From: Candidatus Thorarchaeota archaeon
GTDB taxonomy: Archaea; Asgardarchaeota; Thorarchaeia; Thorarchaeales; Thorarchaeaceae
Assembly (NCBI GenBank): GCA_003345595.1
Contig: PRDI01000075.1
Span: 1 to 64,000 of the forward strand
Reading direction: 5' to 3'
DNA: 64,000 nucleotides
The notes under the pieces were generated by a model that searched no databases, was not told where the DNA came from, and saw only the letters and a program-made list of their open reading frames with translations. Every line of letters begins with the position of its first letter. The stretch's first letter is position 1. This document shows, in pieces, positions 9,890 through 62,012 of this stretch. The translations under genes were made by a program, and so were the position numbers.

Positions 9890-10028
9890 TGGTGGGCCGG
9901 GCCGGATTTCTCGGCCAAGAGCTGGGAGCCAGCTCCTGCGAACCGGCGGCCTCTTGGTTTTGCGCTCGTGGACCACAAGACCATCGAGTCCCGAACCAAG
10001 AATCATAGCCAAGCTAGACTACCGACCC
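9890..10028 (-). tRNA. tRNA-Pro(CGG) with two introns: 37/38 (9959-9989, 31 nt) and 56/57 (9910-9939, 30 nt); CCA encoded
   Basis: Acceptor GGGUCGG/CCGGCCC-A-CCA, anticodon arm CUUGG-UUCGGGA-CCAAG, T arm GCCGG-UUCAAAU-CCGGC after removing two BHB-flanked inserts; 78 nt mature. Confidence 0.93.
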
Positions 10029-10054
10029 ATGCCAACGTGGACTCATGGTGGCAG

Positions 10055-10918
10055 TCATTTAATGGTTTCGTTCGACTGTGCCTGCAAAAACTCCACCGAA
10101 CCAAGGAACACCCCATCAATACTGTAGACTTCAGACGTAGGAAGGTCCACGCATCCACTTTCAAACAGAGGCCCCTGCAACTTAGCACCCTGTTGATTAA
10201 GTGGAAGTCCGGAGATCAGTGTGTTGAAGCTTGGGAGGGTTATCAGAACCCCGTCAGAATCTTCTTGGCCCTGAGGAATGCCGATGTTCTCTCGAAGACA
10301 GTTCTTGTTCAGTCTGGAACGGAGTATGACTGGCAGTGGTCCAGCGTATCTTCTTCGAGTCTGTCTGCCGGGCAATCGCGCCGACACTACTCTTGTTCGT
10401 GTCAGGCTAGGGTGGCTGTGTCCAATCACGATCATCCGTGAATCTATGACCTCTGGCGAAGGCCATGCATGACCATGAACTAGCCCAATGGAGCAATCCT
10501 CAGTCTTACAAAGCACAACTCCTCTCACATCTGCCACTTTGATATTCCTAGGCAACAGGCTCTCGATTGCACCATCATGATTGCCAGGTATCAGAATCAC
10601 GTCCGTATTCTCTGATAGTTGTGTCATGAAGTTCGGGATAGTCTGCCAGTTGAAGGAGCTGTCAGGGGAGATTGTGTGTTTCAAATCACCTATGATATAG
10701 AGCGAAGAAACCGAATGCTTCTCGATTAGGGTTTTGAGTTTCTTGAGCATTGACCGGTGTTCCGACGGGAATGAAATGCCACTGAGCTTGGACAGCTCAT
10801 CATGGAAACCCAAATGTATATCGGACACCAGAAGCGCAGAGAGCGTATCGGTGTGGACTACCAAGCAGCCACTATCAAAGATTGTTTCCATCGATGTACT
10901 GTCTGGATTCGAGAGCAT
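10055..10918 (-). CDS. Metallophosphoesterase (Lhr-associated type)
   Basis: SDIHLG, GDLKH, PGNHD, HGH, GHSHP, LPSFN. Confidence 0.85.
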   Translation of the reverse strand: MLSNPDSTSMETIFDSGCLVVHTDTLSALLVSDIHLGFHDELSKLSGISFPSEHRSMLKKLKTLIEKHSVSSLYIIGDLKHTISPDSSFNWQTIPNFMTQLSENTDVILIPGNHDGAIESLLPRNIKVADVRGVVLCKTEDCSIGLVHGHAWPSPEVIDSRMIVIGHSHPSLTRTRVVSARLPGRQTRRRYAGPLPVILRSRLNKNCLRENIGIPQGQEDSDGVLITLPSFNTLISGLPLNQQGAKLQGPLFESGCVDLPTSEVYSIDGVFLGSVEFLQAQSNETIK

Positions 10919-10954
10919 TTCAACATCGTCATATGAAGAGGCTCGTGATTAGAG

Positions 10955-11341
10955 ATGGTCCTGACTGCTCATGAGATTGGGCTCCTTGCTCAGGAGGAAT
11001 TGACTCAGGCTGACATCCAGTACTTCAAAGGTAAGTATGGTATACGGTTCATGAGGGCCTTGCGAACAGTCGAAGAACGGCGTGTCGTCAAGTATGTCTT
11101 CAAGCCGAGCGGACTCACCTCATGGATCGTCCGAGGCGTCAAACGCGAGTATCTCGTGATTCCAGAGAACTACTGTAGCTGCAGAAGCTTCTACCAGTCG
11201 GTCGTTATTGCAAGAGAGATTGACACTTGTTACCACCTTCTTGCACAGAAGATTGCAGAAGTCCGAGGATCCTACGAAACAATCGATTCGACAGATAGTC
11301 AGAGAAGGAAGATGCATGTTGTATGGAGAAGGACTGACTAG
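10955..11341 (+). CDS. SWIM zinc-finger protein (ZSWIM7/Sws1-like)
   Basis: YCSCRSF…CYHLLA (CxC-xn-CxH). Confidence 0.8.
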   Translation: MVLTAHEIGLLAQEELTQADIQYFKGKYGIRFMRALRTVEERRVVKYVFKPSGLTSWIVRGVKREYLVIPENYCSCRSFYQSVVIAREIDTCYHLLAQKIAEVRGSYETIDSTDSQRRKMHVVWRRTD

Positions 11342-11430
11342 ACGGTCCTGGAAACACGCCCGCTGAGGATAACTTTAAAAAACGCCCTCTGATGACGCTG
11401 GCTATCTAAGCATCTAGGTCGAACTGAGCA

Positions 11431-12525
11431 ATGCTGCGGCTTGATAACATGTCCAAAATCTGTACGGCCGTGATTACGCTCATGGTAGTCTTATCCTGTT
11501 TAGAGAGTACCGCAAGCGCTCAGACCCCCCTTGACCCGGTCGTCATCCTGTACGATGCCTCCCACGGACCACAGTTTGCGGCGGACGACGCAGACAAGGG
11601 CCTCAAACTCATGCTTGACCTGGTCAATGCGTCAACAAGATACATGGTCCGTGTCAACGAGGTTTCTCCCATCAATGACACCATATTGAAGGATGTAGAC
11701 GTCCTAATTCTCGCGTCCCCCGATCGAACTTATGAGTTCACCAAATCGGAAGCATTGTCAATCGTAGAGATGCTGAACAACGGTAGTTCATTGATGATAC
11801 TCGGTGATCCTGCCATCAGCTCGAACTCCACGTATTGGTCGGGTGAGCCGGCTTTCCAAGACTTGGGGGACAATATTGCAGTCAATCGGCTCTTGGACCT
11901 ACTAAACATCACCGGTGTTGGGTTCAGTATCAATGCGACTGGTGACGACAACTTCTGGCCGGACACAATGTTTGACTATGAACGCGCCTTGAACAACACA
12001 TATCCCTGGGTGATACGGCTCGATCCTACGACATGGGAATCAAGCCATCCAATCTTCAAAGACATCAACGAACTGATTCTGATGACCGCCTCTCTAAAGC
12101 CAGTGTCCCTAGTCAGTTCGATCGCACATGGTGCGAAGACCTCATTTGCCCAGTTCAGAAAGGGTCCTAACACCTTCGCCAACTATTCCTTTCCAAACAT
12201 GAGCTTGGCCGAGTTTGAAGAACGCCCGCTCTCCTACTCGGCAATTAACGGCACACTCCCACCATGGCTCTCCGCCTTTGAGTACAACAACAGCAGGGTT
12301 GTGATATCAGGCTCCACAATCATGTTCACAGGACGTCTTCTTGATTTGCCCAAAGCCGAGGTCAAATGGTTCTATGCAGCAGATAACTCCCGGCTTTTCA
12401 TGAACATACTCGGCTGGCTCTCAGAAGACTTCGTCGAACCCGAGACCGCCGTTATGCCCATGCTGTTGATCTCATCCGCGATTCTTGTAATCGGTGTTGT
12501 CTTCTATTTGGCTAAGAAGAGGTAA
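11431..12525 (+). CDS. Signal-peptide, C-terminally anchored GIFT/GATase-like glycoprotein (WBP1/OST48-like candidate)
   Basis: YDASHG, DVLILASP, GSSLMILGD, NNSRVVISGS..N..L..NILGWL; C-terminal TM plus AKKR; 11 N-X-S/T sequons. Confidence 0.7.
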   Translation: MLRLDNMSKICTAVITLMVVLSCLESTASAQTPLDPVVILYDASHGPQFAADDADKGLKLMLDLVNASTRYMVRVNEVSPINDTILKDVDVLILASPDRTYEFTKSEALSIVEMLNNGSSLMILGDPAISSNSTYWSGEPAFQDLGDNIAVNRLLDLLNITGVGFSINATGDDNFWPDTMFDYERALNNTYPWVIRLDPTTWESSHPIFKDINELILMTASLKPVSLVSSIAHGAKTSFAQFRKGPNTFANYSFPNMSLAEFEERPLSYSAINGTLPPWLSAFEYNNSRVVISGSTIMFTGRLLDLPKAEVKWFYAADNSRLFMNILGWLSEDFVEPETAVMPMLLISSAILVIGVVFYLAKKR

Positions 12526-12539
12526 GCTGTGGAAAACGC

Positions 12540-13148
12540 TTACCAGGTGGGTATCTGCAGGCCCTCAGCCTGCAAGACTCTCTCTATCTCGTTCCTGAGC
12601 TCAACGATATTCGTCCCCTGCTTAGCCGAAAGTGGGACAATCACGGGAGCAAGTCCCTTCTGTGGAATCTTGTCATGCAGATAGTCTATCTCTTCTGCTC
12701 TGTTACCACTTGGCAGCTTGTCAATCTTGTTAGCGACTACTATCACGTGTTGAGATATCTCAGAAAGGAAGGTATAGAATTCCATATCGATTGGAATCTC
12801 TCCCTTGTTTTCCCATCTCTCGACGAGCTCTCGGAAGAGCGAGATGTCTATGACGAGGACCGCCAAGACTAGGCGACCGCTCCAAGACTCAAGCTTTTGC
12901 ACGAGTGCGGTCTTTGCCCGTTCAATGGCCTTCCTTCCCTGTCCAGCCATGTGGCCAAAGCCCGGTGTATCAACAAAGAGCACGGCTCCGAGATCAATAC
13001 TCTTCTCCCATCGTGTGGTCCCTGGACGCTTGCCTACCTTGAGTCTTCGGCCTGTGAGTGCTCTCATCACGCTACTCTTACCCACGTTGCTTCGTCCAGC
13101 GAAAACGACCATGGGTTTCTCATTCCCAGAATGGTCTTGTTCTGGCAT
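12540..13148 (-). CDS. engB: EngB/YihA-family GTPase
   Basis: GRSNVGKSS, GKRPGTT, DTPGFG, NKID; archaeal RW..GEIPID.EFY. Confidence 0.9.
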   Translation of the reverse strand: MPEQDHSGNEKPMVVFAGRSNVGKSSVMRALTGRRLKVGKRPGTTRWEKSIDLGAVLFVDTPGFGHMAGQGRKAIERAKTALVQKLESWSGRLVLAVLVIDISLFRELVERWENKGEIPIDMEFYTFLSEISQHVIVVANKIDKLPSGNRAEEIDYLHDKIPQKGLAPVIVPLSAKQGTNIVELRNEIERVLQAEGLQIPTW

Positions 13149-15960: not shown

Positions 15961-16196
15961 CCAAACGACTTCCTTAGTCGGAGCGTGTGACGAATGGCAC
16001 TCACTAGGATGCGGATGTCGGTTCTGAGTGTAGCATCAGCATCGCATGCCCTGTTCTCAAGCAGTTCTATGGCCTCGTTCGGAGAGGAGATCTGTTTCAT
16101 TATCTCCTCGACCAGTGACTGCACTATGTCAAGATTGGACAGGTGCGGTGCAGATCTCTCGAATGCCTGTTGGACTATTTCTTCAGTGTTCATCAT
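15957..16196 (-). CDS. Small helical hypothetical protein, stop overlapping the lhr start
   Basis: 79-aa ORF with ATGA coupling to lhr. Confidence 0.7.
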   Translation of the reverse strand: MMNTEEIVQQAFERSAPHLSNLDIVQSLVEEIMKQISSPNEAIELLENRACDADATLRTDIRILVSAIRHTLRLRKSFG

Positions 16197-16216
16197 GAGG
16201 TGGCTCTGGACGTGCC

Positions 16217-16321
16217 TTACTCTTCCTCTTCCTCACCGTATGCGACGTAGCCCAAGACAAGGAGAAGGGCCACGATTCCCAAGACGTACAAGACAATATC
16301 GATGACTGGGATTATCTGCAT
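16217..16321 (-). CDS. Unannotated 34-aa single-pass membrane microprotein MQIIPVIDIVLYVLGIVALLLVLGYVAYGEEEEE (OST4-like candidate)
   Basis: ATG about 30 nt downstream of TATA (TTATAA 16352-16357); one TM helix and an acidic tail; fills the intergenic gap. Confidence 0.7.
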   Translation of the reverse strand: MQIIPVIDIVLYVLGIVALLLVLGYVAYGEEEEE

Positions 16322-16388
16322 AGGTATCAGATGGCTCCGTCTGAGTGTCACTTATAATCATTGCTGACTGAAAAGATTGATGCAGTGG

Positions 16389-16640: not shown

Positions 16641-16795
16641 GATTCCTCACCTTTGCCTATTTCGCACAGACCGAGCTACAAGGCACGGAGAAACAGAGCG
16701 ACTCCGGCCTCGGCTGGGATTCATTTAAGCGTTGCGTTAAGTCCCGATGAGTTTGGGGTTCGAAGGCTTCTTATTGCAGCTGCCGTGCGACATGA

Positions 16796-20297: not shown

Positions 20298-23200
20298 GTG
20301 AGTGATTCCGAGCCTAGTCTGCCAAAACACAGTGTGAGCTATGGAGAGTACTTCTCGTCTATCAAGACAGACGTAGAACGTATCTACGAGGTCGCTGAAC
20401 GCGCGAGAGCCAAAGGCTTCGATCCGGTGACTAAGGTCGAGATACCTCCGGCACATGATGTGGCAGCAAGGGTGGAGGCCACTCTTGATGGCCCCGTTGG
20501 AGTAGCCAAAAGAATCCGTGAACTCCAACAGACCTTCTCTAGGGAGGAAGTGGCTTTTGCAGTCGCTAGGGAGATAGCGACTGGAGATCTTGGAGGGATC
20601 TCAGATCGTGAGAAGGCCGCAGACAAGGCAGTACGTGTCGCATTGGCAGTCATGACGGAGAGTATCACTGCAGCACCCTTGGAAGGCATTGCCAAGGTTC
20701 GGATACGTGGTTCAGGAGAGGGCGAGTATCTGGCGCTCTATCTTGCTGGCCCGATTCGTGCTGCTGGAGGCACGGACGCCGCTATGACCGTGCTTGTCAC
20801 AGATCAGGTACGGCAAGTATTGCACATTCCAGCATTCAAGACAACTGATGACGAAGTGGAACGAGCAGTTGAGGAGGTCGAGCTGTACTCCCGTGCGTCA
20901 CACTTGCAATACCCGGTGTACCCAGACCTGATCAGGTTTGCAGCAGCGAGACTACCCATAATGCTGACTGGTGAGCCGACTGAAGAGTATGAAGTCTCAG
21001 GTGGCCGCGACCTTGACCGTATCGAAACCAATAGGGTCAGGAGTGGTTTTGTTCTCGTCCTAAGTGACGGGGTTGTCGGCCGGTCTGCGAAGCTTGCAAA
21101 GATGGTGAGCAAGGTCAATGTTCCTGGGTGGGAGTGGCTTAGCGAGATTGCTGCCAAGACATCGAAGGCCAAGTCTCCAGAGGCAGATGAGTCTGCTCTC
21201 AAGAAGCTTGCACCGAAACCCGAATACTTGGCCGATGTGATAGGCGGAAGGCCTGTGTTCTCTCACCCATCTCGTATTGGTGGTTTCAGGCTCAGGTACG
21301 GTCGGTCACGCAACACCGGCCTGGCGGGTGTCGGCATCAGTCCTGCCACGATGTTCCTAGTCGACGAGTTTCTAGCCCCCGGAACTCACATTCGTACAGA
21401 GCGACCGGGCAAGGGGGCAATTGTAGCTCCTGTAGACACTATCGAGGGACCGATAGTCCTGCTCAGAGATGGCTCAGTGAAACAGGTCAACACTGCTGAG
21501 GAAGCTCAAAGGCTCGAAGGAAAAGTGGAACGTATCATCTTTCTGGGCGATATCTTGGTGGCGCTGGGTGAGTTCCTGGAGAACAATCACCCACTGGTAC
21601 CCTCCGGATACTGCGAAGAGTGGTGGTCACACGACCTTGACAAGGCTTGCTCTCGTCTGAGTGCAAAGCATGTTGACAAGCATCTGTCCGACTCCGGAAT
21701 CACACACGATGATCTCAAGGCCTTCATCGAGTCTCCACTCTCCAAGATTCCAACACCAACTCAAGCACTACGTCTTTCAGAGCATTTTCAAGTGCCATTA
21801 CACCCAAGGTACTTGTACCGATGGGCGGTTCTCAATGCAGCAGAGGTTTCCGAACTGAGGACATGGCTTCTGTCCAAGTACAAGACAGAACAGACTCCTG
21901 AAGGCGAAACTCTTACAGTCCCAAGTGATCCGCACTACAAGGGCCTCCTAGAACGACTTGGCGTTCCTCACATTGTGAGCCGCGACAAGACGTACATCAC
22001 TCTTACTGACAGTCCCGAAACTGTCCTTGTGCAGTTGGGCTCTAGAAGCAAGTCGCTCAGTGGTACAGATCCTCTTCAGATGCTTAACTCTGTCACAAGC
22101 GTGCCGCTCAGAGACAAAGCAGGTTTCTTCATAGGAGCAAGAATGGGTCGGCCCGAGAAGGCTGAGGAGCGGAAGATGCACCCTCCAGTCCAAGTCCTCT
22201 TTCCTGTGGGTCGGACTACCGCAAGTGAGAGGAGATTGGAGAGAGTTGCCAAGACCACACAAGCCGTTTCCATTCTCTCATCTTTTGATGATCTGACAGA
22301 CGGACAGTCAAGCTATGCTGAAACATATGGGCCAGACATTGAAATGGTATCACGCGTGTGCCCTGAATGCCAAACCCTGACATTCGAGTCACGTTGCCCC
22401 AAGTGTCTGGTACACACCGAAGTGAGCCGATGGTGTTCTCAGGACGGTTGCGGTCGTCCAATAGATGCGAACACCGGGATGTGTCCTCTGAGCCACGACG
22501 TGAACATGGTCCGGGCCACAAGAAGGTATGTTGTTGACATTCAGATGCTTCTTGATCGCATAAAGACCGAGATCGGTGAATCACAGGCCTACAATCCACG
22601 AGGCGTGCTTGGATTGACGAATGAGTTCAAGATCCCTGAATACGCTGGGAAGGGTATGCTCCGCGCCAAGCACGACGTATACTGCTATCGAGATGGTACT
22701 GCGCGGTTTGACTCGACAGACGCTCCCCTGACTCACTTCTTCCCTCGTGAAGTAGGCGTTTCAGTCGAACGTCTACGTGACCTGGGCTATCGCACTGATT
22801 ACAATGGCAGCCCTCTTGTTTCAGACGACCAAATCGTGGAACTCAAGGTGCAAGACCTAGTTGTATCGGAGAACTGTGCTGAGTATCTGTTCAGAGTAGG
22901 ATGTTTTGTCGATGACTGCCTTGAGAGAGTATATGGACTGGAGCCGTTCTACAAGTTCGAAACGCAAGATGATGTCTTGGGGCAGCTCGTCATAGGGCTC
23001 GCGCCACACACGTCGGCAGGGATAATCGGTAGGATCATCGGTTTCACCGATGCGAGTGTCTGTTATGCGCATCCATACTGGCATGCCGCCAAGAGAAGAA
23101 ACTGTGATGGCGATGAAGATGCAGTGATGCTAGTCTTGGAAGCTCTTCTCAACTTCTCAAGAGCCTATCTTCCTGCAGGTAGAGGGGGTTTCATGGATGC

Positions 23201-23846
23201 GCCACTTGTCCTCTCGGTTATCCTTAACCCCTCTGAGGTAGACGCCGAAGCGCACAACATGGATGTGTGCAGACGCTATCCTGCACAATTCTTTGAGATG
23301 GCTGCTGAGGCTCGTCACCCCAAGGAAGTCGAACGCCTAGTTGACATTGTGGCATCTAGGTTGAACACAGAGAACCAGTATGAGGGATTCGGTTTTACTC
23401 ATGGGACTTCTTTGATTGATGCAGGTCCGCGTAATACAAGGTACAAGACCTTGGGCAGTATGGAAGAGAAGCTGGATGCTCAACTCCGACTGGCTGGCAT
23501 AATCGATGCAGTAGATGCAAAAGACGTCGCTGAGCGTGTCCTATCGCATCATTTCATTCGTGACATTAGAGGAAACCTGAGAGCCTACTCCACTCAGAAG
23601 ATTCAGTGCATAAGGTGTCACAGAATCTATCGCAGAGTCCCGCTATCTGGAAGGTGTGATTGTGGTTCCAAGCTCTCGCTGACAGTCAGACGCAAGAACA
23701 TCTCAAAGTATCTTGCCATAGCTCAGAGAGTGATTGACGAACATGGCCTTGGCCAGTATCTGAAGGATGGGCTAAGGTTGATCAACTCTGCTATGGACTC
23801 CCTCTTTCAGTCTGAGCAGACTTCTCTGACAGACTTTGTAGACTGA
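20298..23846 (+). CDS. polC: DNA polymerase D large subunit DP2
   Basis: GFRLRYGRSRNTG, AKRRNCDGDED, GGFMDAPL; C-terminal PIP-like QTSLTDF; no intein evident. Confidence 0.98.
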   Translation: MSDSEPSLPKHSVSYGEYFSSIKTDVERIYEVAERARAKGFDPVTKVEIPPAHDVAARVEATLDGPVGVAKRIRELQQTFSREEVAFAVAREIATGDLGGISDREKAADKAVRVALAVMTESITAAPLEGIAKVRIRGSGEGEYLALYLAGPIRAAGGTDAAMTVLVTDQVRQVLHIPAFKTTDDEVERAVEEVELYSRASHLQYPVYPDLIRFAAARLPIMLTGEPTEEYEVSGGRDLDRIETNRVRSGFVLVLSDGVVGRSAKLAKMVSKVNVPGWEWLSEIAAKTSKAKSPEADESALKKLAPKPEYLADVIGGRPVFSHPSRIGGFRLRYGRSRNTGLAGVGISPATMFLVDEFLAPGTHIRTERPGKGAIVAPVDTIEGPIVLLRDGSVKQVNTAEEAQRLEGKVERIIFLGDILVALGEFLENNHPLVPSGYCEEWWSHDLDKACSRLSAKHVDKHLSDSGITHDDLKAFIESPLSKIPTPTQALRLSEHFQVPLHPRYLYRWAVLNAAEVSELRTWLLSKYKTEQTPEGETLTVPSDPHYKGLLERLGVPHIVSRDKTYITLTDSPETVLVQLGSRSKSLSGTDPLQMLNSVTSVPLRDKAGFFIGARMGRPEKAEERKMHPPVQVLFPVGRTTASERRLERVAKTTQAVSILSSFDDLTDGQSSYAETYGPDIEMVSRVCPECQTLTFESRCPKCLVHTEVSRWCSQDGCGRPIDANTGMCPLSHDVNMVRATRRYVVDIQMLLDRIKTEIGESQAYNPRGVLGLTNEFKIPEYAGKGMLRAKHDVYCYRDGTARFDSTDAPLTHFFPREVGVSVERLRDLGYRTDYNGSPLVSDDQIVELKVQDLVVSENCAEYLFRVGCFVDDCLERVYGLEPFYKFETQDDVLGQLVIGLAPHTSAGIIGRIIGFTDASVCYAHPYWHAAKRRNCDGDEDAVMLVLEALLNFSRAYLPAGRGGFMDAPLVLSVILNPSEVDAEAHNMDVCRRYPAQFFEMAAEARHPKEVERLVDIVASRLNTENQYEGFGFTHGTSLIDAGPRNTRYKTLGSMEEKLDAQLRLAGIIDAVDAKDVAERVLSHHFIRDIRGNLRAYSTQKIQCIRCHRIYRRVPLSGRCDCGSKLSLTVRRKNISKYLAIAQRVIDEHGLGQYLKDGLRLINSAMDSLFQSEQTSLTDFVD

Positions 23847-43026: not shown

Positions 43027-43167
43027 GGGCCAGTGGCTAAGCCAGGTATAGCGACAGGCTCTTACGTTTCTCAGTGGCCCCGCTGGGAGATGGAGATACC
43101 TGTTGGTCGGGGGTTCGAAAACCCCCCATATTCCATGGGGCGATCGACTATCCCCCCTGGCCCGCCA
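43027..43167 (+). tRNA. tRNA-Lys(CTT) with two introns: 37/38 (43065-43097, 33 nt) and T-loop 59/60 (43120-43150, 31 nt); CCA encoded
   Basis: GGGCCAG/CUGGCCC-G-CCA, ACAGG-CUCUUAA-CCUGU, GGGGG-UUCGAAU-CCCCC after splicing; 77 nt mature; TATAAA at 42995. Confidence 0.92.
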
Positions 43168-44504: not shown

Positions 44505-45587
44505 TTGATACCAAGTGCTCATGACGGACTGCCCAAGTATGTAAGAGACCGCGACATAGTCCATGACAAGAATGGCCGTGTCTTTGTTGCTCTGGGCCAC
44601 ATTCAACCAGTCGAACGCATACTATCTTTTCTCAAATATGTACCGGACCCGGGGGGCGAATGGCGTAGTGGCAATAACAGGTACCGACGTGTGTTCTGGG
44701 GTGGGGTCGACTCTGTCACTAGGGGTATGGCCATGGTACCCCCTCACTATATAGTGGATGATACTCACTTTGGCACCAGCCTATTGGAGCCGCCCAGAGA
44801 GAGCATCTCAAAGTACTTCAGTCCCGAGTTACGACTGAGTGAGATTTCTCGCGAAGGCCCCCGTGACGAACTTGAGTCATCTGCCAAGCATCTAGCTGAG
44901 CTGATTCATGACGCACTTGGCATTCCTCTTGAACGCATTGGGGTCACCGGGAGCATTTGTTGGAAGGCGCATGATCCAGCACGTTCAGACATTAACATGA
45001 ATGTCTACGGTTATAGAGAGGCGTGGCGCCTTCAGTGTGGTTTCGAACAACTCGCAGACCAGAACAAGCATGTGACTCTGAGAGGCCACTCGGACTGGGG
45101 CCCCGCTCTATGCCGAACGATGCAGCGGTTTCCTCAGCTGCCGGCTAGCGTAATCGAGAATCTGTTTCGCCGACGTAATGAACTGTGTGTTGATGGTAAG
45201 TGCATCGGGATAATGCCCGTACTCCTGCCAAGTGAGGTACCGATACAACATGGTAGCGAACATTACGTTTCAATGACCAATGACCCTGTGAGCATCACAA
45301 TGAACATCAGTGATGCAAGATACGGTATCTTCATGCCTGCAATGTACCAAGGCATATCAGAACCCGTGAACGCAATACATGGTGCCCGAATCAGTCGTAT
45401 AATGGTCTATGACGGCATGTTCAGAGGTCTACTGCGTACCGGTGATCGCGTTGAAGCGGTAGGGGCTCTTCAAAGAGTCAAGTCCGGGTCAGAGGCAGAC
45501 GACGGGCACGAGTCTTATCAGATTATGATAGGTACCAAGAATGGCTACGGACATGAGTTCATTCGCGTGGTCAAGGCCAGCTCCTAG
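44505..45587 (+). CDS. Predicted archaeal nucleotidyltransferase
   Basis: LKYVP, IGVTGSI…SDINMNVYG (GS..D motif). Confidence 0.7.
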   Translation: MIPSAHDGLPKYVRDRDIVHDKNGRVFVALGHIQPVERILSFLKYVPDPGGEWRSGNNRYRRVFWGGVDSVTRGMAMVPPHYIVDDTHFGTSLLEPPRESISKYFSPELRLSEISREGPRDELESSAKHLAELIHDALGIPLERIGVTGSICWKAHDPARSDINMNVYGYREAWRLQCGFEQLADQNKHVTLRGHSDWGPALCRTMQRFPQLPASVIENLFRRRNELCVDGKCIGIMPVLLPSEVPIQHGSEHYVSMTNDPVSITMNISDARYGIFMPAMYQGISEPVNAIHGARISRIMVYDGMFRGLLRTGDRVEAVGALQRVKSGSEADDGHESYQIMIGTKNGYGHEFIRVVKASS

Positions 45588-45646: not shown

Positions 45647-46717
45647 TTGCACTTGATGTACTCCCCTAGACCCTTTCTCAGAATACCTGAAAGTGACGGA
45701 GATTGGGTAAGGAAGGCCCTCTTGACTGCCAATCTGCTCGACAAGGACTTCAGAATTGAATCGAGAGATGGTATGCTGTTCATTCCTCTGAGGCATGAGG
45801 TGGAACACGAGAGGATTCGAGAAATCCTTGGGGTCGTCGCCTTCGAAACCGGAAGGAAGGACTTCGACCCGCTTTCCAAGTGTCCAAGAACACTCAAAGA
45901 CGCATTGGCTGGCACGATGGGCGCCGAGCAAATGGCGTTGCTTCCCAGAGCGTACGATATGGTGGGTGACATAGCGGTGCTTGAGCTGCCAGAAGAGATA
46001 GCATCATATGGAAAGCAAATTGGCGAGGCATTCTTGGCAGTCCACAGCAGCTTCATGACAGTCCTAGCCAAAAGAGGCGCCGTGTCAGGTACTTCCAGAA
46101 CGCGACAGTATGAATTCCTTGCAGGCCAGAGAAAGACAAAGACTGTTCATACAGAATACGGTTGCAGAATTGCCGTGGACTTGGCAAAGGCCTACTTCAG
46201 TCCTCGGCTGCTTGAAGAGCACAGCAGGATTGCCAAACAGGTGAATGATGACGAGCTCATCATAGACATGTTCACCGGTGTCGGCTGCTTCCCTCTCCAC
46301 ATTACAAGAGCGCACGATTCTCGTGTGGTGGCAATAGACATCAACCCAGACGCAATCCGCTTGCTGAGAGAGAGCATGAGCATGAACCGGCTCAGAGGCG
46401 AGATTGTCCCGGTAGTGGCAGACTCAGGAGTCTACGTCCGGGCCAACTTCTTCAAGAATGCCGATCGCATCATAATGAATCATCCCTCAGGGGCTCTGGA
46501 ATTCGTTTCAGAGGCTTGTCATGCAATCAGGGACAATGGGGTAATTCACTACCACGCATTCACGGGAGCAGACAATTCGGACGAAGAGATGATCGAGAAG
46601 GTCACTCAAGTAATCAGCAAGAGCGGCCGGGATCTTGTTGAGATAGCACAACTGAAGCGTGTTCGCGAGAGTGCTCCTCACGAATACCAGATGGTTGCAG
46701 ACTTGATTATCCGCTGA
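45647..46717 (+). CDS. trm5: Trm5-family tRNA m1G37 methyltransferase
   Basis: YDMVGDIA, H.EYG…VD…YFSPRL..E, DMF.GVG.F, DINP.A, DRIIMN.P. Confidence 0.88.
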   Translation: MHLMYSPRPFLRIPESDGDWVRKALLTANLLDKDFRIESRDGMLFIPLRHEVEHERIREILGVVAFETGRKDFDPLSKCPRTLKDALAGTMGAEQMALLPRAYDMVGDIAVLELPEEIASYGKQIGEAFLAVHSSFMTVLAKRGAVSGTSRTRQYEFLAGQRKTKTVHTEYGCRIAVDLAKAYFSPRLLEEHSRIAKQVNDDELIIDMFTGVGCFPLHITRAHDSRVVAIDINPDAIRLLRESMSMNRLRGEIVPVVADSGVYVRANFFKNADRIIMNHPSGALEFVSEACHAIRDNGVIHYHAFTGADNSDEEMIEKVTQVISKSGRDLVEIAQLKRVRESAPHEYQMVADLIIR

Positions 46718-49217: not shown

Positions 49218-49857
49218 CTCTGGCGCGCTCCTCGAAGTCCCTCAGCTCTCCTATGAGCTTGGACTGTTGTACGCCGGCGGTGAGATCTCCGCGGGTTCGT
49301 TCCACGAGCGACCTAGCGACATCGCACTTTCTGCGAAGGTCCGGGACCAAGGCATTTGGGAAGTCGAATGATAATAGCCCCTCTAAGGTTTCTTCCATAA
49401 ATCCCAAGAGTTGCTCAGCCCGCTCGACCTCGTCTGCGCGTAGAGAGTCGAGTACTGCCCTTCTGAGTTCTCCAATCGCATCTGCGAGCCCTGTAAGGAA
49501 TGGCCTGATAGGTATGCCATGCTGCTGAGGTGGAGTGAACGTGCCCTCACTAAGTAGAGAAACCACGTTTGCCGCCTCTGCTATCTCTTGGTAAGCGCTG
49601 TCCAACAGTCTAGAGGAAAGCATGAACTCGCTCTGTGAGCACTCTCTGCTTGCCTCGGTCAGGATGTCTTGGGCTTCATAGACCAGCCCAGATGCATCAG
49701 CATACTCTCTTCTGTGTGCGCACTTCACTGACTCGGCACACTTTCTTACAGCCTCTCTTGCCAGAGGTAGGACTCTCTCACGAATGTGATCATCGTTCTC
49801 AATCTCAGTCTTGAGGGGTTCTAGAATCCTGTCAAGCTCCATATGGTCCACCATCAC
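49201..49857 (-). CDS. Translin/TRAX (C3PO) family protein
   Basis: AYQEIAEA, GLADAIGELRR, LRRKCD.AR..VE.T. Confidence 0.88.
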   Translation of the reverse strand: MMVDHMELDRILEPLKTEIENDDHIRERVLPLAREAVRKCAESVKCAHRREYADASGLVYEAQDILTEASRECSQSEFMLSSRLLDSAYQEIAEAANVVSLLSEGTFTPPQQHGIPIRPFLTGLADAIGELRRAVLDSLRADEVERAEQLLGFMEETLEGLLSFDFPNALVPDLRRKCDVARSLVERTRGDLTAGVQQSKLIGELRDFEERARDERKR

Positions 49858-50825
49858 AGTGACTGTATACTCTCTGGATGCCGCTCTCGAGATAGAAGCA
49901 CAACACGGCTTTCAACTTGTTCATCGAGAGTGATATATCCAGTGATTGCTGATATCTTCTCTGCAAACGCACGTATGTCTTGGTGAGAGGGAACGTTGTG
50001 GAGGCTCAGCCTTCCTCTTGATGAGCCTAGGGGCATGTACCCCTTAACCTCCACGAAGTCTGGGTTTCCCTTCAGAATCATGCTTCCATAGGCCCTTGGA
50101 TTGTGCATGTTGCGGCCTGAAACCATTGTGAGTCTGTTGACACGTCTGCAGTTGAGTGACCTGAGCAAGTCCTGCGTTTCGTTGATTAGCTCCCACGAAT
50201 GGGGATCCGCTGGTCTGCACAGAAACCTGTAGGTCTGTTCATCGGGTGCGGCAAGTGTGACGTACAACTGAGTGGGGAGTGACATTTCTCTTATGACCTC
50301 GGGGCGCGTACCATTAGTAACGAGGAATGATGTCATCTTTCGATGACGAATCTCATCAATCAATAGCCCAATCATAGGATACAGAGTAGGTTCTCCGGAC
50401 AGTGAAATAGCCACATGCTTTGGGTTGCGTGCCTCCTTGTACTTGCTCTCCGGGACCCTTGCGCCCGCTTCGGGATTGTAGCCTCCCAGTGCTCGCTGGT
50501 TCGCCATCAATGCGGCATCCAAGAGCTCTCGTGGAGGTAGCGCATCCTCTTCCGCCACTTCTGTCTGATTCCAAGCAATGCCAACGTCAGTCGGCGTCAC
50601 GCGCCAACAGAACTCACATTGCTGAGTACACTTGTCGACCAGTGGAGTCATCTGGACGCATCTGTGCGACTCAATCCCGTAGAATCGCTGTTTGTAACAG
50701 ACATCACCAAAGAGGAGGCTCTTCTTCTGCCACTGACAGGCCTTGAATGCTCCTCTCTCCCCAAGAATGTCATACCCCTGATGCTCAAGCTTCTCCCTGA
50801 GCTGGGCCGGCATCTCAGTACTCAA
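49854..50825 (-). CDS. taw1: 4-demethylwyosine synthase (radical SAM)
   Basis: CYKQRFYGIESHRC.QMTP, C.Q.C.FCWR, H.AISLSGEPTLYP. Confidence 0.95.
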   Translation of the reverse strand: MSTEMPAQLREKLEHQGYDILGERGAFKACQWQKKSLLFGDVCYKQRFYGIESHRCVQMTPLVDKCTQQCEFCWRVTPTDVGIAWNQTEVAEEDALPPRELLDAALMANQRALGGYNPEAGARVPESKYKEARNPKHVAISLSGEPTLYPMIGLLIDEIRHRKMTSFLVTNGTRPEVIREMSLPTQLYVTLAAPDEQTYRFLCRPADPHSWELINETQDLLRSLNCRRVNRLTMVSGRNMHNPRAYGSMILKGNPDFVEVKGYMPLGSSRGRLSLHNVPSHQDIRAFAEKISAITGYITLDEQVESRVVLLSRERHPESIQSL

Positions 50826-52896: not shown

Positions 52897-53973
52897 GTGC
52901 CATCTCTGAATCCATTCACAGACATTCCAGTATTGATGACCTCGGAGGAGATAATCGAATATGCGCACAACAGATCAGTGAGAAAGAGTGCGAAGAGTCC
53001 CGTACGGATGTCCAAGCTTGAGAAGACTCGCATAAGGGAGATAGCTAGGACTCAGGAGTTCACCAAGCAAGTGAGGGCTAAGCTAAAGGCGACCGTTGAG
53101 TCCTTTCCGTCTCTGGACCGACTCCATCCGTTCTATCTCGAGTTGACTGAGATACTCATAGGTGTGGACAAGTTGAAACAAGCACTGGGAGCCATTTTCA
53201 ACTGCATTGGCCCGATAGATAGGATAGCAGACTCACAGATTGCAGCCATGAAGCGTGCAGACGAACTCGGTGAGATCAAGAAGTTGCGGAGCGCCACAAA
53301 AGGACGCATCTCCTCAATCGTACGTGGAACAGCCAATAACCTCGACACGGTCATTGAGGCAAGAAAGGTCTTGAGTGGTTTGCCCGGAGTGAATCCGAGT
53401 TCGCCCACAGTCGTGTGTGCAGGTTTTCCCAATGTGGGTAAGTCTACTCTCGTGAAGGCGGTTTCGACGGCGGAACCCGAGATTGCCTATTATCCATTCA
53501 CAACTCGTGAGGTGATAATCGGACACATGACTGTAGACAACCAAGTCATTCAGGTGGTTGACACGCCGGGCATCCTAGACCGGCCGATGAGTCAGAGAAA
53601 TCAGATTGAGAGGCAGGCCATTGCCGCCCTGAAGTATCTCGCGAGTGTCATCATATTCATGATGGACCCATCAGAGGCTTGCGGGTGGACTTTCGACGAA
53701 CAGATTCATCTGCATGATGAGGTACGTAGAATGTTTCCGGTGAACCCTGTCATCGTTGTGTTCAACAAAGTGGACATAACCCCTCAGGATCGTCTTGAGG
53801 CAGCAAGAGCAAGGATTCCCGGGGCCCGCGAGATTGTGGCTTCACAAGGGATCGGCCTCCAAGAGCTCATGAGAGAGGTAATTGAAGCCGTGGATTTGTC
53901 GTCACTGCAGGAAGTCATAGACGCGTACCTTTCAGCGCTGCCCAAGAGCGAATCCCATTCCTCGGATGCGTAA
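52897..53973 (+). CDS. NOG1-family GTPase
   Basis: FP.LD.LHPFY, GFPNVGKS, YPFTT, DTPGILDR, NKVD. Confidence 0.93.
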   Translation: MPSLNPFTDIPVLMTSEEIIEYAHNRSVRKSAKSPVRMSKLEKTRIREIARTQEFTKQVRAKLKATVESFPSLDRLHPFYLELTEILIGVDKLKQALGAIFNCIGPIDRIADSQIAAMKRADELGEIKKLRSATKGRISSIVRGTANNLDTVIEARKVLSGLPGVNPSSPTVVCAGFPNVGKSTLVKAVSTAEPEIAYYPFTTREVIIGHMTVDNQVIQVVDTPGILDRPMSQRNQIERQAIAALKYLASVIIFMMDPSEACGWTFDEQIHLHDEVRRMFPVNPVIVVFNKVDITPQDRLEAARARIPGAREIVASQGIGLQELMREVIEAVDLSSLQEVIDAYLSALPKSESHSSDA

Positions 53974-55002
53974 CACTCCTGGTCCTCCGACTTCTCCTTC
54001 AATCTCTGCATTAACACCCAAGATATGCTGAGCGACCCAGACGTTAGTTTCTAGATGCGATGTCACTTCGGTCACTCCAATCCGACTATCTCCTGATGCC
54101 ACAGCCATGTATGGCACCAGCATGTCACTCAGGTGTGAATCAACGGCTTTTCCTGCGGAAAGCTCGTGAATGAGATCATGAGCTGCCTCCGAACCAACAT
54201 TCTCAGCACTCTTCCCTCTCTCTCCCAAGCTATCAGAACCTAGCCTGACACCGTTTTCCGACTCTGCCCAGAGTACAATACCGCTACCTGGCCCCAGATG
54301 TGGATCCCTAGCTTTGGGATACGTTTCTCGTGAGATATTGACTCTCTGAATGCTGTGACTGCGTAGCATCTGTTCTGCAGATGCCGCCTGTCTCTCGGCC
54401 ACATGCGATGGAAGTTTAACACAGTGGGACACTCCGCCTATCTCCCTAAGGCGTCCGAACTCAATCAGCTCAAGTGGCGAAACCACTCGGACTGAGCCTA
54501 TTGTGCACGAAACCCTGCCTCCTCCTGCAGGGTAATGACCACGCTGTTCCTGCACCAATTTTACTACCGGCCCCATACGTCGAAGCGTGTACAGGAACAC
54601 TTCGCGCAGATAATCGACAGGGGGACTCCAAGCGACATCAGTGCCGCCCACTAAATGAAAGCTGATGGGGTCGTTAGACAGAATTGCAGGCGGCAGGACT
54701 GTCTGAAGAACAAGCGATATTGACCCTGCTGTTCCAACGTCAAATACGAAATCGCCGCCGCCTCTCCGGACGGGTTCAAACCGGACTTCAGTGCTACCTA
54801 CTTTCAGACCACTCACTTTTGCACTAACGATTCTTGCAGCCAGTTCCACTCCTGCAATGTGCTGGCTCTTCAGGCCGGGATCTGGCCTGTTTGCACGTAT
54901 GTTGAATACTCTCACCGGCCGCATGGCAAGTGCTGACAACGAGACTGCTGTGCGCAGTATTTGCCCACCGCCCTCGCCATGGGAACCATCAACGTCAATC
55001 AT
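53932..55002 (-). CDS. rtcA: RNA 3'-terminal phosphate cyclase
   Basis: GEGGGQILR, IRA.R..PGL..QH, GGTDV.WSP, D.HL.D.L, HL.TN. Confidence 0.96.
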   Translation of the reverse strand: MIDVDGSHGEGGGQILRTAVSLSALAMRPVRVFNIRANRPDPGLKSQHIAGVELAARIVSAKVSGLKVGSTEVRFEPVRRGGGDFVFDVGTAGSISLVLQTVLPPAILSNDPISFHLVGGTDVAWSPPVDYLREVFLYTLRRMGPVVKLVQEQRGHYPAGGGRVSCTIGSVRVVSPLELIEFGRLREIGGVSHCVKLPSHVAERQAASAEQMLRSHSIQRVNISRETYPKARDPHLGPGSGIVLWAESENGVRLGSDSLGERGKSAENVGSEAAHDLIHELSAGKAVDSHLSDMLVPYMAVASGDSRIGVTEVTSHLETNVWVAQHILGVNAEIEGEVGGPGVLRIRGMGFALGQR

Positions 55003-55679: not shown

Positions 55680-55687
55680 AGGCCACA

Positions 55688-55710
55688 TTCAGTATGACTT
55701 AAATACTGAA
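55688..55710. repeat. 8-bp inverted repeat TTCAGTAT-N7-ATACTGAA overlapping the TATA box upstream of proS
   Basis: Perfect dyad read directly; TTAAATA at 55699-55705. Confidence 0.5.
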
Positions 55711-55830
55711 AGCTGAGGACTCTCCACTGGTGAGCGAGCGATGCTAGGTGAGCGCGTTCCGCATTATCAATAGACCGCTTCTGAGTCCTAGCCAGTTTCT
55801 TGCATTTCAGTCAAATCAGAGGATACTACA

Positions 55831-57315: not shown

Positions 57316-57413
57316 GTGTTGTATGTTTCGCCAGAGTTGCTGTGACTTGGAGTAAGGCTTTAAGGAGGACCCCTCTGAGGGGTGAAGACAGTCTTGGCTC
57401 AGGGGAATCGAGA

Positions 57414-59600: not shown

Positions 59601-59647
59601 TGTTTCTGTGACATATGCTAATCGTTACCTAGCAGGGAGGACAAACA

Positions 59648-60220
59648 TTGAAGCGGGTCTTGGTATTGGGTGACACTCATATTCCGAAGCGCCGGGACTC
59701 CATACCTCCCGCTTTCTTTGAACACATCCGTATGAGCAGCTACGACTTGGCCCTCATCACAGGTGACCTCGTACGCGAGAGTGACATGAGAAAGGCGATG
59801 CCTCCGTTGCCCCAATGCGTCATAGTTCGTGGCAACATGGACCTAGAAACGAAATACAATCTGCAGGAATTGGTTCAGATTGACGACTTCCGTATTCTTT
59901 TGCTCCACGGGACTCAAGTAGACCCGCGTGGGGACCTCTCTCAGCTTGGAGAGATTGCCCGTGAGAGCGATGCTGATGTCACTGTCCACGGTCATACGCA
60001 TGAAGAAGCGATAGACCTGCTCGATGGGCGGCTGTTCCTGAATCCGGGAACGATCTCTGGTTCTACAGGCGGCTGGGCGGGACGAGTAGACGCGAGTTTC
60101 ATGGAGCTCGTCGTTTCACCCGGCCATATAGGAGTGACTCTCTATCACACCGACTGGGTCGACATTAGAGAATCGAAGACTGCCTACCTCAAGACCAGCA
60201 AAGGAATATCCAAGGCATGA
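59648..60220 (+). CDS. YfcE/Vps29-family metallophosphoesterase
   Basis: GDTHIP.R, TGDL, VRGNMD, HG.QV.P.GD, GHTH, NPG...G, SF. Confidence 0.85.
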   Translation: MKRVLVLGDTHIPKRRDSIPPAFFEHIRMSSYDLALITGDLVRESDMRKAMPPLPQCVIVRGNMDLETKYNLQELVQIDDFRILLLHGTQVDPRGDLSQLGEIARESDADVTVHGHTHEEAIDLLDGRLFLNPGTISGSTGGWAGRVDASFMELVVSPGHIGVTLYHTDWVDIRESKTAYLKTSKGISKA

Positions 60221-60231
60221 ATGAAACTCGG

Positions 60232-60879
60232 CTACCCTTCATCGCTCTTCTCGATATTCAATCCCCAAGGATCAGGACTCAACAGACCTGCGAATAGCTG
60301 CTTGAGTACTCTCACACTCTCAGCCAATGCTGCACTGATGACCTTTTCATTAAGCACACCGGTTTCATCCATACGGGAACCAAAGTTCTGTGAGAGAGGT
60401 GAGTCATATCGTTCACGCGAGGAGGAACCTGCAGTCCTTGTTACTGGCCCTAGTGACTTGACAGCCTCTTCTATCTCCTCCACTGGGGAAACGTCACGGT
60501 TGAATCTGAGTCGCTTAAAGAAGTGCATGAGGGCCTGTTTGACCGCTGGCCCTGTCAAGGACTCATCTCCAAGTCTCGATACTAGGCTCAATGCTCCGTG
60601 TTTCAGTTGCTCCCCTACGATGCTCTGTACCCTTTCGGCAAACGTCCGGTCCCCACCGCAGGCTATGCCAATGGCAATCAGGAGCATTCGTATTCTGTCG
60701 AGGAAGACACCAGCATCAGGGGCTGTGTTCGCGTGCCCTCTCATGGATGCACGCCAGTCATCATAAGCCTGGCTTATCCTCTCGAGCTGACCTCTATATC
60801 CGGTCAGCTTCTGGAGGTCCTCGAATGGTATCAGAGGACACCATACCGGAGCTGAGTTGTGTTCAGGCTCGGGGGTCAT
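60232..60879 (-). CDS. Hypothetical helical protein
   Basis: 215-aa ATG ORF filling the gap; no motif recognised. Confidence 0.7.
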   Translation of the reverse strand: MTPEPEHNSAPVWCPLIPFEDLQKLTGYRGQLERISQAYDDWRASMRGHANTAPDAGVFLDRIRMLLIAIGIACGGDRTFAERVQSIVGEQLKHGALSLVSRLGDESLTGPAVKQALMHFFKRLRFNRDVSPVEEIEEAVKSLGPVTRTAGSSSRERYDSPLSQNFGSRMDETGVLNEKVISAALAESVRVLKQLFAGLLSPDPWGLNIEKSDEG

Positions 60880-61018
60880 GGCAATCTTCGGTGTGACTGA
60901 GCATTATGAGTCTTTGGCGTACGTTGCTGCTTTCGGTTCATGTGTGCAGGCCAATAATACATGAATCGACTTGCGTCAGCCGAATGTCTTGTAACCATAT
61001 GAGTAGAGTCAACTGGCA

Positions 61019-61321
61019 GTGATGAAAGTGGGAAAGAAAACAGTCACAATAGAGGTCATGAGCATACTAGGCGAAGGCAAGTGTTCTCTTGGGCAGAGAG
61101 TCGGTGATATCTTTAGATATCCCCAGGATCTGAACAGGCTTTGCCCCAATGCCTTTCACATCTTATATCCGTGGATACTGGTTCTGGAATCGGGCGGTAC
61201 TTTTCCTTTCTTTGGTGACAATGGTGACAGTGTGACTCTCGGTTGTTCTGACTACAGACACCAGGTAGTCTTTAGAATCACTCGAACGCGGTCGCGGGAA
61301 CCAACAGAGAGAAGAGAGTAA
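61019..61321 (+). CDS. TIGR04076-like small cysteine protein
   Basis: G.C..G..VGD.F, LCP.AF…YP…L..GG.F, C.D…VVF.I. Confidence 0.8.
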   Translation: MMKVGKKTVTIEVMSILGEGKCSLGQRVGDIFRYPQDLNRLCPNAFHILYPWILVLESGGTFPFFGDNGDSVTLGCSDYRHQVVFRITRTRSREPTERRE

Positions 61322-61427
61322 TGGCGCCGCCGAGAGGGCTCGAACCTCTGACCAACAACTGTCTGGCGTTCGCTTTGACTAGCAGGACGGTAACAGGCTG
61401 TCGCTCTGCCGACTGAGCCACGGCGGC
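61322..61427 (-). tRNA. tRNA-Asn(GTT) with 30-nt intron at 37/38 (61361-61390); CCA encoded
   Basis: GCCGCCG/CGGCGGC-G-CCA, ACAGC-CUGUUAA-GUUGU, AGAGG-UUCGAGC-CCUCU. Confidence 0.95.
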
Positions 61428-61549
61428 CTTCTTGCGGAGTCGTGACCACGGTCACACAATATTAACATTGCTGTCTAGTTCGATGGAGTGGGCTCGGCTT
61501 CGAGCTTGACCCTCATGGCTCTTCTGGCGCGAACTCCCGCAGACCGGTC

Positions 61550-61814
61550 ATCTAGTATCATCATCACAAAACGAATCATCGGATTCATCGTAGCGGCTCT
61601 CTCAAAGCCTTCCGCGCGAATCCTGGGAATCGCTTCATTACTCACGACAGAAACCATTGCTCCAGTCGCAAATGCCAACTCATACAGGAGCAAATGGAGA
61701 GAGTGCGACGATTGACACCTAGACGAATCTCCAGATCCTGTCAAGCAGTATGCGGGTGGCGCTCAACCCTGTCGCCCCACCTGCAATCCGACTGTCTAGA
61801 AGGTCAGTTGCCAT
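61550..61814 (-). pseudogene. Remnant of a ZIP (ZupT/GufA) metal transporter: only degenerate N- and C-terminal pieces
   Basis: IAGGATGLSA..ILL (ATG 61814, early TAG) and, in another frame, LAFATGAMVSVVSNEAIP…ERAAT…FVMMILD; the core is missing. Confidence 0.7.
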
Positions 61815-61906
61815 TATGTCGGACAAGAACAGCATGGCCTTCTACCGCCCGTCACTGAAAATCGTCAGGGAGTATGAAGCAGTTGTCCGACTGTCATAGT
61901 AGATTG

Positions 61907-62012
61907 TGGTGGGCCCGGGGGGACTTGAACCCCCGGCGGGCAGGTTATGAGCCTGCTGCTTACGGCGCTCGCTCTGGAACGAGTGGGCTCTACCAAGCTG
62001 AGCTACGGGCCC
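61907..62012 (-). tRNA. tRNA-Ile2(CAT) with 29-nt intron at 22/23 in the D-arm (61961-61989); CCA encoded
   Basis: GGGCCCG/CGGGCCC-A-CCA (Ile-type acceptor, not the A1-U72 initiator), GCAGG-CUCAUAA-CCUGC; BHB helix UGGU/GCCG with AGA and UAA bulges. Confidence 0.88.

Follow-up and report, generated by a model that had tools for sequence, protein, structure and literature searches.

Passages of the literature on Thermoproteales and other Crenarchaeota describe transfer RNA (tRNA) genes with multiple introns at non-canonical positions and propose that such introns can transpose (Marck & Grosjean 2003; Sugahara 2008; Fujishima 2010). For Asgard archaea, an (αβ)2 splicing endonuclease (EndA) with an L1 loop was reported along with a tRNA survey that included Thorarchaeota SMTZ1-83 (Kaneta 2018, PMC5829648), 92 to 95% of the tRNA genes were found to be interrupted in three complete genomes (Valentin-Alvarado et al. 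2024, PMC11291895), and a 90-genome census described repeated gains (Goswami et al., October 2026, bioRxiv 10.64898/2026.10.13.758758). To this background we add a 64,000-nucleotide (nt) stretch of a Thorarchaeota contig (hereafter, the window), which holds five tRNA genes, some of them interrupted by short introns with bulge-helix-bulge (BHB) boundaries. Its tRNA genes, the splicing enzymes of the same genome, and the orthologs in related genomes were compared with these described systems.

Very probably, the genome is one in which tRNA genes are routinely interrupted by short BHB introns, which would be cut by an (αβ)2 EndA bearing a crenarchaea-specific loop (CSL, equivalent to L1), with the exons joined by RtcB and the intron set being fluid. 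Intron-rich tRNAs and a CSL-bearing (αβ)2 EndA are already published for Asgard archaea, and the window is a well-documented further example of them. What goes beyond the cited literature is the turnover of introns within one genus of Thorarchaeota, a likely copy of a tRNA-Arg intron in a tRNA-Pro gene, and a 30-nt template common to tRNA and 16S rRNA introns.

Interrupted tRNA genes in the window and across the genome

The window corresponds to contig C75 in a metagenome-assembled genome (MAG; G000) of 2.73 Mb and 129 contigs, with 83% completeness and 2.9% contamination. Its tRNA genes were resolved by a solver that lists every deletion with BHB-capable boundaries and picks up to three that give the best cloverleaf. 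The BHB was defined by a central helix (H) of four pairs, formed by exon positions a-6 to a-3 with intron positions b-2 to b-5, by 3-nt bulges in which the cuts fall, and by two further helices, one of the exons (h) and one of the intron (h'). The genes and introns are as follows:

9890-10028, minus strand: tRNA-Pro(CGG) gene with two introns; solver score 32, all stems paired after removing both
9959-9989, minus strand: Pro intron 1 at 37/38, 31 nt; H 3/4 (second pair U·C), h 7, h' 4
9910-9939, minus strand: Pro intron 2 at 56/57 in the T-loop, 30 nt; HBh' type with H 4/4, no exon helix (h 0), h' 7
43027-43167, plus strand: tRNA-Lys(CUU) gene with two introns, resolved by the solver
43065-43097, plus strand: Lys intron 1 at 37/38, 33 nt; strict hBHBh' with H 4/4, h 7, h' 7
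43120-43150, plus strand: Lys intron 2 at 59/60 in the T-loop, 31 nt; H 3/4 with U54·C adjoining the T-stem, h 5 (the T-stem), h' 1
61322-61427, minus strand: tRNA-Asn(GUU) gene with one intron; found by the solver and by Rfam at gathering score
61361-61390, minus strand: Asn intron at 37/38, 30 nt; H 3/4 with U35·C adjoining the 5' bulge, h 7, h' 3
61907-62012, minus strand: tRNA(CAU) gene with one D-arm intron, of the elongator Met or Ile2 type
61961-61989, minus strand: CAU intron at 22/23, 29 nt; H 4/4, h 1, h' 2
62771-62848, plus strand: tRNA-Glu(UUC) gene, uninterrupted; found by ARAGORN, Rfam, and the solver

The top solver solutions were identical for all five genes to the structures of the first-pass annotation, which had proposed six introns of 29 to 33 nt in four of the five tRNAs, with two genes doubly interrupted. 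Its non-canonical sites at 22/23, 56/57, and 59/60 and its U·C mismatches in three central helices were recovered as well. The spliced products of all five genes, each of which encodes CCA, reached cloverleaf scores of 32 to 33, the maximum observed being 33. Intron removal from the four interrupted genes gave complete acceptor (7/7), anticodon (5/5), and T (5/5) stems and restored the conserved core nucleotides. The tRNA(CAU) is a non-initiator because it has G1-C72.

The three helices with a U·C mismatch (Pro 37/38, Asn 37/38, and Lys 59/60) belong to the recognized relaxed BHB class, and the other three are strict, with 4/4 pairs. The weakest flanking helices of the six are those of the CAU intron, whose sequence permits boundaries from 22/23 to 25/26, of which only 22/23 forms a BHB. 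In the Lys 59/60 intron, the single h' pair is followed by an offset hairpin with the loop AUUCC. When each intron was shuffled 5000 times with its boundaries fixed and scored by the central helix plus h', the observed score was reached by 58 shuffles for Pro 37/38, 6 for Pro 56/57, 5 for Lys 37/38, 404 for Lys 59/60, 56 for Asn 37/38, and 67 for CAU 22/23; the six-intron set is far beyond chance. We also considered U·C as a special feature and rejected it: a single mismatched pair occurs in the central helix of 40 of the 94 distinct introns in the genes from the searches of relatives (A·G in 15, U·C in 12, G·A in 7, U·U in 4, and others in 2), mostly at the helix ends, so that these mismatches are ordinary relaxed-BHB variants.

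Standard annotation tools recovered few of these genes correctly. ARAGORN in its default run found only tRNA-Glu (1/5 genes) and, with introns allowed, miscalled the CAU tRNA as Trp. Rfam at gathering score found the Glu, Asn, and CAU tRNAs and missed Pro; its match to Lys(CUU), at 29.7 bits, was wrongly ended at 43135 and left the acceptor ends mismatched, the true 3' end being located past the second insert. Over the whole genome, the two programs gave about 25 tRNA loci. We also used an acceptor-closure search that combines acceptor-stem closure and an encoded CCA with D-arm or T-arm signatures. The census stands at about 31 tRNA loci and about 30 introns (about 0.95 per gene); roughly 21 of the loci are interrupted, 7 of them more than once. 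These figures and the copy numbers are lower bounds, since the genome is 83% complete and many isoacceptors are unaccounted for.

The acceptor-closure search brought out six genes that neither Rfam nor ARAGORN had detected: Val(CAC), interrupted in the variable region and at 59/60; Pro(GGG), interrupted at 37/38 and 58/59; Pro(CGG) of the window; and those at the following loci:

Contig C96, 21732-21873 and 22204-22345: tandem tRNA-Arg(CCG) and tRNA-Arg(GCG) genes, 472 bp apart, each interrupted in the D-loop (34 nt) and at 56/57 (30 nt)
Contig C14, 5900-6071: 172-nt locus with perfect acceptor, D-arm, and T-arm, an encoded CCA, and a clear 59/60 intron

The tandem Arg genes have an A1·C72 mismatch atop the acceptor stem, where two genomes of the same genus (G002 and G003) have G1-C72. 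The C14 locus holds about 64 extra nt between the anticodon-stem strands and, judged by eye, could be a Trp(CCA) gene with three introns. For Lys(UUU) and Gln(CUG), whose Rfam scores stayed below the cut-off, the acceptor-closure search resolved a 59/60 intron in each. About one-third of the tRNA genes of this MAG were missed or mis-bounded by the standard tools; the "missing" tRNAs of Asgard MAGs, on which introns had been expected to bear, are therefore largely an annotation artifact in Thorarchaeota bins.

No second, intronless copy of any of the four interrupted genes was found in the assembly: the Lys, Asn, and CAU queries each gave a single match, and the other matches to the Pro query are other Pro isoacceptors and Arg genes. 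Near the end of contig C20 (about 31259-31288, minus strand), a 30-nt module with an ATTTC loop lies directly 5' of AGTTCGAATCTCG...GCCA and resembles the 3' portion of a further tRNA gene that has a T-stem intron and is truncated by the contig end. Two tRNA-Cys(GCA) loci (C95:1736-1811 and C102:26837-26912) gave the same solver result and have an unusual T-loop, UGCAAUU instead of UUC...; this could reflect either a duplication or contig redundancy within the bin.

Splicing enzymes and intron turnover among relatives

The (αβ)2 EndA of Aeropyrum pernix (PDB 3P1Z and 3AJV) carries a CSL that confers broad specificity and allows cleavage in the D-loop and of bulge-helix-loop (BHL) motifs, with K44 as an RNA-recognition residue (Hirata et al. 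2011, PMC3241643). The genome studied here has an RtcB gene (contig C78) and two genes with both EndA domains:

Contig C89: EndA alpha, 188 aa; PF02778 and PF01974 (N and C domains)
Contig C124, 5386-5847: EndA beta, up to 241 aa; PF02778 and PF01974

The best solved relative of EndA alpha is the A. pernix alpha subunit (3P1Z_B, E 4.5e-49), which has nearly the same length (188 versus 186 aa), with small gaps only outside the CSL. The alignment is gap-free through the loop, where GQPVGIRKPKSAEFDKPL is aligned to GQPLDVEKPRGADFEGPL, K43 standing opposite K44 of A. pernix and K45 opposite R46, which is thus replaced by Lys. The Tyr/His/Lys catalytic triad is kept, its His being the residue that reads Ala in 3AJV. 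The second protein keeps Tyr and Lys and has Thr opposite the catalytic His of M. jannaschii, and it is therefore the structural beta subunit, separate from the catalytic one as in A. pernix. Its nearest matches, however, are the sequences of M. kandleri and M. jannaschii and not the crenarchaeal beta subunit. The start codon is uncertain; with translation from the first ATG, the protein would have an acidic stretch of about 65 aa added at its N terminus. Its gene is flanked by two tRNA-Arg genes, UCG (C124:3459-3536) and CCU (C124:7625-7724).

Two EndA-domain genes were present in 28 of the 31 genomes of the phylum that were searched. The genome encodes a two-gene (αβ)2 splicing endonuclease with a crenarchaeal-type CSL, for which assembly as a heterotetramer is predicted. 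The first-pass annotation had proposed a permissive endonuclease and had pointed to the EndA architecture and specificity loop as the place to check it; the CSL-bearing alpha subunit, with K43 and K45 aligned to K44 and R46, and a beta subunit lacking the catalytic His are in line with that proposal. By homology with the A. pernix enzyme, a broad specificity is predicted.

To compare intron sets, the four interrupted genes were searched against 30 relatives and the matches were solved, which gave orthologs in 18 genomes of the same family. Their exons are near-identical and their intron sets differ. The Pro(CGG) ortholog of the same-genus genome G001 is full-length and 95% identical, and it shares the 37/38 and 56/57 introns with G000. 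The gene in G002 and G003 carries just one intron, located at 39/40 and unrelated to those two. Outside the genus, Pro(CGG) is intronless in eight other genera and has introns at 50/51 and 58/59 in one genus. The 22/23 intron of tRNA(CAU) was found only in this genus (g1; G000, G001, and G003) among the genomes searched, with no intron in seven genera and a 43/44 intron in seven. Lys(CUU) and Asn(GUU) carry zero to three introns, at 22/23, 30/31, 37/38, 43/44, 50/51, 53/54, 56/57, 58/59, or 59/60; the Lys 59/60 intron is present in G001 and missing from G002. Glu(UUC) is intronless in G000, and its ortholog in G001 has a 31-nt intron at 59/60.

These patterns support a very fast intron turnover, with apparent gain and loss within one genus. 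The ongoing intron gain suggested earlier for this lineage is borne out in this sense, strictly as gain and loss, and the turnover agrees with the repeated gains on terminal branches in the preprint (bioRxiv 10.64898/2026.10.13.758758).

Intron copying, a common 30-nt build, and the alternatives

The Pro(CGG) 56/57 intron is identical at 26 of 30 positions, both helix strands included, to the 56/57 intron of Arg(GCG) on contig C96, and at 24 of 30 to that of Arg(CCG). Its alignment with the Arg(GCG) intron scored 22, as against 9 for the best shuffled pair in the set of this genome and 12 in a larger set; among 6105 intron pairs, the best other pair of different tRNA types scored 15, and other cross-type pairs were at or near the shuffle range. 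The comparison within G000 covered 23 of the roughly 30 introns in the census and yielded this one cross-isotype family only. Intron transposition of the Thermoproteales type is recognized by introns of 80% identity or more that recur in different tRNA types within a genome and by such families forming a substantial share of the introns. The identities of 26/30 and 24/30 agree with the first feature, whereas the one family among the 23 introns compared does not amount to such a share. The Arg(GCG) 56/57 intron is also present in G002 and G003, where the T-loop of Pro(CGG) is intronless, and the Arg gene is therefore the likely donor of the Pro 56/57 intron.

The Pro 56/57 intron also has a build that recurs among the introns collected. 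Among 111 introns from 93 genes of this genome and its relatives, 91 are 28 to 33 nt long, and 48 are exactly 30 nt. One template fits 33 of the 36 non-canonical 30-nt introns from 18 genomes, these 33 representing 21 tRNA/position combinations, and the Pro 56/57 intron is of this kind. It consists of 1 unpaired nt, a 9-bp helix, a 5-nt loop resembling A-N-U-Y-C, and a 6-nt tail that comprises the central-helix strand and the 3' bulge. In the helix, 298 of 324 cells are paired, versus 127 to 137 after shifting the partner by one or two positions, with 4 to 6 pair types per position. The loop has A at position 11 in 25/33, U at position 13 in 29/33, and C at position 15 in 26/33, and the tail has A at position 29 in 29/33. 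None of the nine pentaloops of canonical 37/38 introns matches the template loop. A dispersed palindrome of the repetitive extragenic (REP) kind was considered and rejected, as only 4 of 524 hairpins of at least 8 bp in the genome have an A-N-T-Y-C loop, versus 4.1 expected, and all four lie in coding-looking sequence. No description of the template was found in the cited literature on Asgard and Thermoproteales tRNA introns.

Small BHB introns in archaeal 16S rRNA genes are of a known kind. The first-pass annotation had guessed at BHB introns in rRNA or mRNA, and one strong candidate is present in the 16S gene of this genome:

Contig C62, 11861-13392: 16S rRNA gene with a 30-nt insert at 12735-12764 (locus L202:2375-2404)

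The insert has BHB boundaries with H 4/4, h 3, and h' 6, and in the alignment to the Rfam small-subunit model precisely 30 bases are inserted between positions 854 and 855. Its length and layout, with 8 of 9 helix pairs and the loop CUUCC, match the template of the lineage's own tRNA introns. For mRNA, no BHB intron of the crenarchaeal kind was found in cbf5, the gene being open and unbroken over 343 aa, and a template scan of the hutU locus found no mini-intron, a scan blind to an in-frame 30-nt insert of another build. A genome-wide scan with loose templates gave 3299 matches and was unusable owing to its many false positives.

The Arg-to-Pro copy and the 16S insert of the same length and layout lead us to a tentative thought, which we regard as somewhat doubtful, that the non-canonical introns are one family of stereotyped 30-nt mini-introns spreading between RNA genes, in which a 9-bp helix of free sequence is combined with a conserved A-Y-U-Y-C-like pentaloop that selection would preserve because some factor reads it. 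Such a factor might be an extra determinant for the splicing of relaxed motifs or a part of the spreading mechanism.

Added to the observed gene structures, motif geometry, enzyme genes, and turnover among relatives, the explanation that we favor supposes the following. The six introns would be transcribed within the pre-tRNAs, and each would fold with the neighboring exon bases into a strict or relaxed BHB. The (αβ)2 endonuclease would cut both bulges, the CSL presumably letting it, like other such enzymes, cut relaxed motifs at any position, and RtcB would then ligate the exons. Introns would appear, disappear, and shift position between species of one genus, and at least the Pro 56/57 intron would be a copy of that of tRNA-Arg(GCG), a gene with the same T-arm.

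Several points weigh against this explanation. The Lys 59/60 intron is weak by itself, only marginally better than its shuffles (404/5000), and a mismatch occurs in 3/6 central helices. Minimum-free-energy folds of the whole precursors lack the 3-nt bulges for 5/6 introns, and such folding was therefore not used as evidence. Chance alone, according to the preprint, yields relaxed BHB classes at many arbitrary boundaries (bioRxiv 10.64898/2026.10.13.758758). The motif statistics for relatives lean towards the motif since the solver demands a BHB-like boundary, the Arg-to-Pro direction rests on parsimony over four genomes, and the census gives minimum counts. Splicing, cut sites, and ligation are predicted from sequence.

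How far these points favor other explanations depends on what else those would have to accommodate. With the genome in 129 contigs and incomplete, and with several isoacceptors not found in the tRNA searches, the interrupted genes could be decaying pseudogenes or assembly artifacts, the functional tRNAs residing in the unassembled 17% of the genome. This seems extremely improbable, as about two-thirds of the detectable tRNA genes are interrupted, the exons are essentially identical to intronless orthologs in other genera, the spliced cloverleaves are perfect, and the inserts sit exactly where a BHB can form. The same architecture is, moreover, kept at 92 to 98% identity in an independent same-genus assembly, with the intron hairpins preserved through base changes. 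A somewhat less remote, although still very unlikely, alternative concerns the inserts at 22/23, 56/57, and 59/60, which may not be removed by EndA at BHBs and may instead be retained as expansion loops or cut by another nuclease. The weak flanking helices (h' 1 in Lys 59/60, h 1 and h' 2 in CAU 22/23) and the chance abundance of relaxed motifs speak for it. However, the conserved tertiary core cannot accommodate a 30-nt insert in the T-loop or D-arm, and the loop on the catalytic subunit is one experimentally shown to permit D-loop and BHL cleavage. The non-canonical 30-nt introns that follow one template, with covarying helices and the central-helix strand plus 3' bulge as their last 6 nt, likewise argue for removal by EndA.

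For the Pro 56/57 intron, copying has to be weighed against convergence of the Pro(CGG) and Arg(GCG) introns on a class consensus imposed by an identical T-stem. Both genes have the T-stem GCCGG/CCGGC, which fixes the 4-nt central-helix strand, and the template fixes the length and the loop and tail positions, so that part of the likeness would be expected. Yet the 18 helix positions are free in the class, with 4 to 6 pair types each, and are nevertheless identical in the two introns, and their score of 22 stands well apart from the 15 of the best other cross-type pair among the 6105 and from shuffles at 12 or below. Convergence is accordingly an improbable account of the pair, if less so than the two alternatives above, and copying from Arg remains our preferred interpretation.

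Other genes of the window and relation to described systems

The window carries archaeal housekeeping genes, including those for the PolD large subunit, aIF2-alpha, an STT3/AglB-type oligosaccharyltransferase, RPA, NOG1, and others, and genes for tRNA- and RNA-related enzymes:

20298-23846: PolD large subunit (DP2)
45647-46717, plus strand: Trm5-family tRNA (m1G37) methyltransferase; Pfam TRM5-TYW2_MTfase, TYW2_N_2, and Trm5_N
49854-50825, minus strand: Taw1/TYW1, 4-demethylwyosine synthase; Pfam Wyosine_form and Radical_SAM, TIGR03972 at 361 bits, above the cut-off
53932-55002, minus strand: RtcA, RNA 3'-terminal phosphate cyclase; Pfam RTC and RTC_insert, TIGR03399 at 408 bits

DP2 is 93% identical to an uncultured archaeon MAG and 62 to 78% identical to about 60 records titled Candidatus Thorarchaeota, with Thermoplasmata at 39 to 40%. 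By this similarity, we place the window lineage in Thorarchaeota (Asgard), in keeping with the first-pass annotation, which had called it Asgard-like and would have been overturned by a contig from elsewhere. The RtcA, Trm5, and Taw1 genes that it had listed were all found by Pfam and NCBIfam matches, the best NCBIfam match of the Trm5-family gene being Trm5b, at 243 bits and thus under the 600-bit cut-off. Nothing in their presence links them to splicing, and EndA and RtcB are on other contigs. Two open reading frames (ORFs), 44505-45587 (plus strand, 360 aa) and 60232-60879 (minus strand, 215 aa), have no match in Pfam or NCBIfam. A weak Rfam match to the C/D-box small nucleolar RNA snoZ107_R87 (38699-38791, minus strand; 24.4 bits, E 0.94, well under the gathering score) lies within the 3' region of the STT3/AglB-type ORF and is likely a chance match.

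The closest described tRNA genes are those of other Asgard archaea, with which the genes reported here share multiple and non-canonical introns that annotators often miss, BHB-type boundaries, repeated recent gains, and an (αβ)2 EndA that provides a permissive setting. The density of about 0.95 introns per gene matches the 0.91 given in the preprint for Asgard families outside its focal ones (bioRxiv 10.64898/2026.10.13.758758). The preprint, in whose main text the word "Thor" is absent, reports a median insert of 22 to 23 nt and cross-isotype families that make up 1.5% of the focal Asgard introns and 28% in a Thermoproteales control (bioRxiv 10.64898/2026.10.13.758758). The lengths found here, in contrast, cluster at 30 nt, the non-canonical introns share one template, and there is one clear cross-isotype copy. 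Thermoproteales and other Crenarchaeota are similar in having introns at many positions with strict and relaxed hBHBh', HBh', and hBH motifs, related introns in different tRNA genes, and a dependence on a CSL-bearing (αβ)2 EndA. They belong, however, to a different superphylum; cross-isotype families amount to 28% of introns in Thermoproteales and to one family in about 30 introns here, and no description of a uniform 30-nt build for Thermoproteales was found in the cited literature.

The first-pass annotation also saw a bearing on the origin of the eukaryotic endonuclease TSEN, on which these results have no direct bearing without biochemistry. The differences within one genus, with two, one, or no introns in Pro(CGG) and none or one in Glu(UUC), are dated, recent test cases for models of intron gain. 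The likely Arg-to-Pro transfer would provide a concrete donor-recipient pair, of a kind almost absent in the focal Asgard lineages of the preprint. Finally, the uniform 30-nt template with its conserved loop, which occurs in the 16S rRNA gene as well, points to an as yet undescribed constraint or spreading mechanism.

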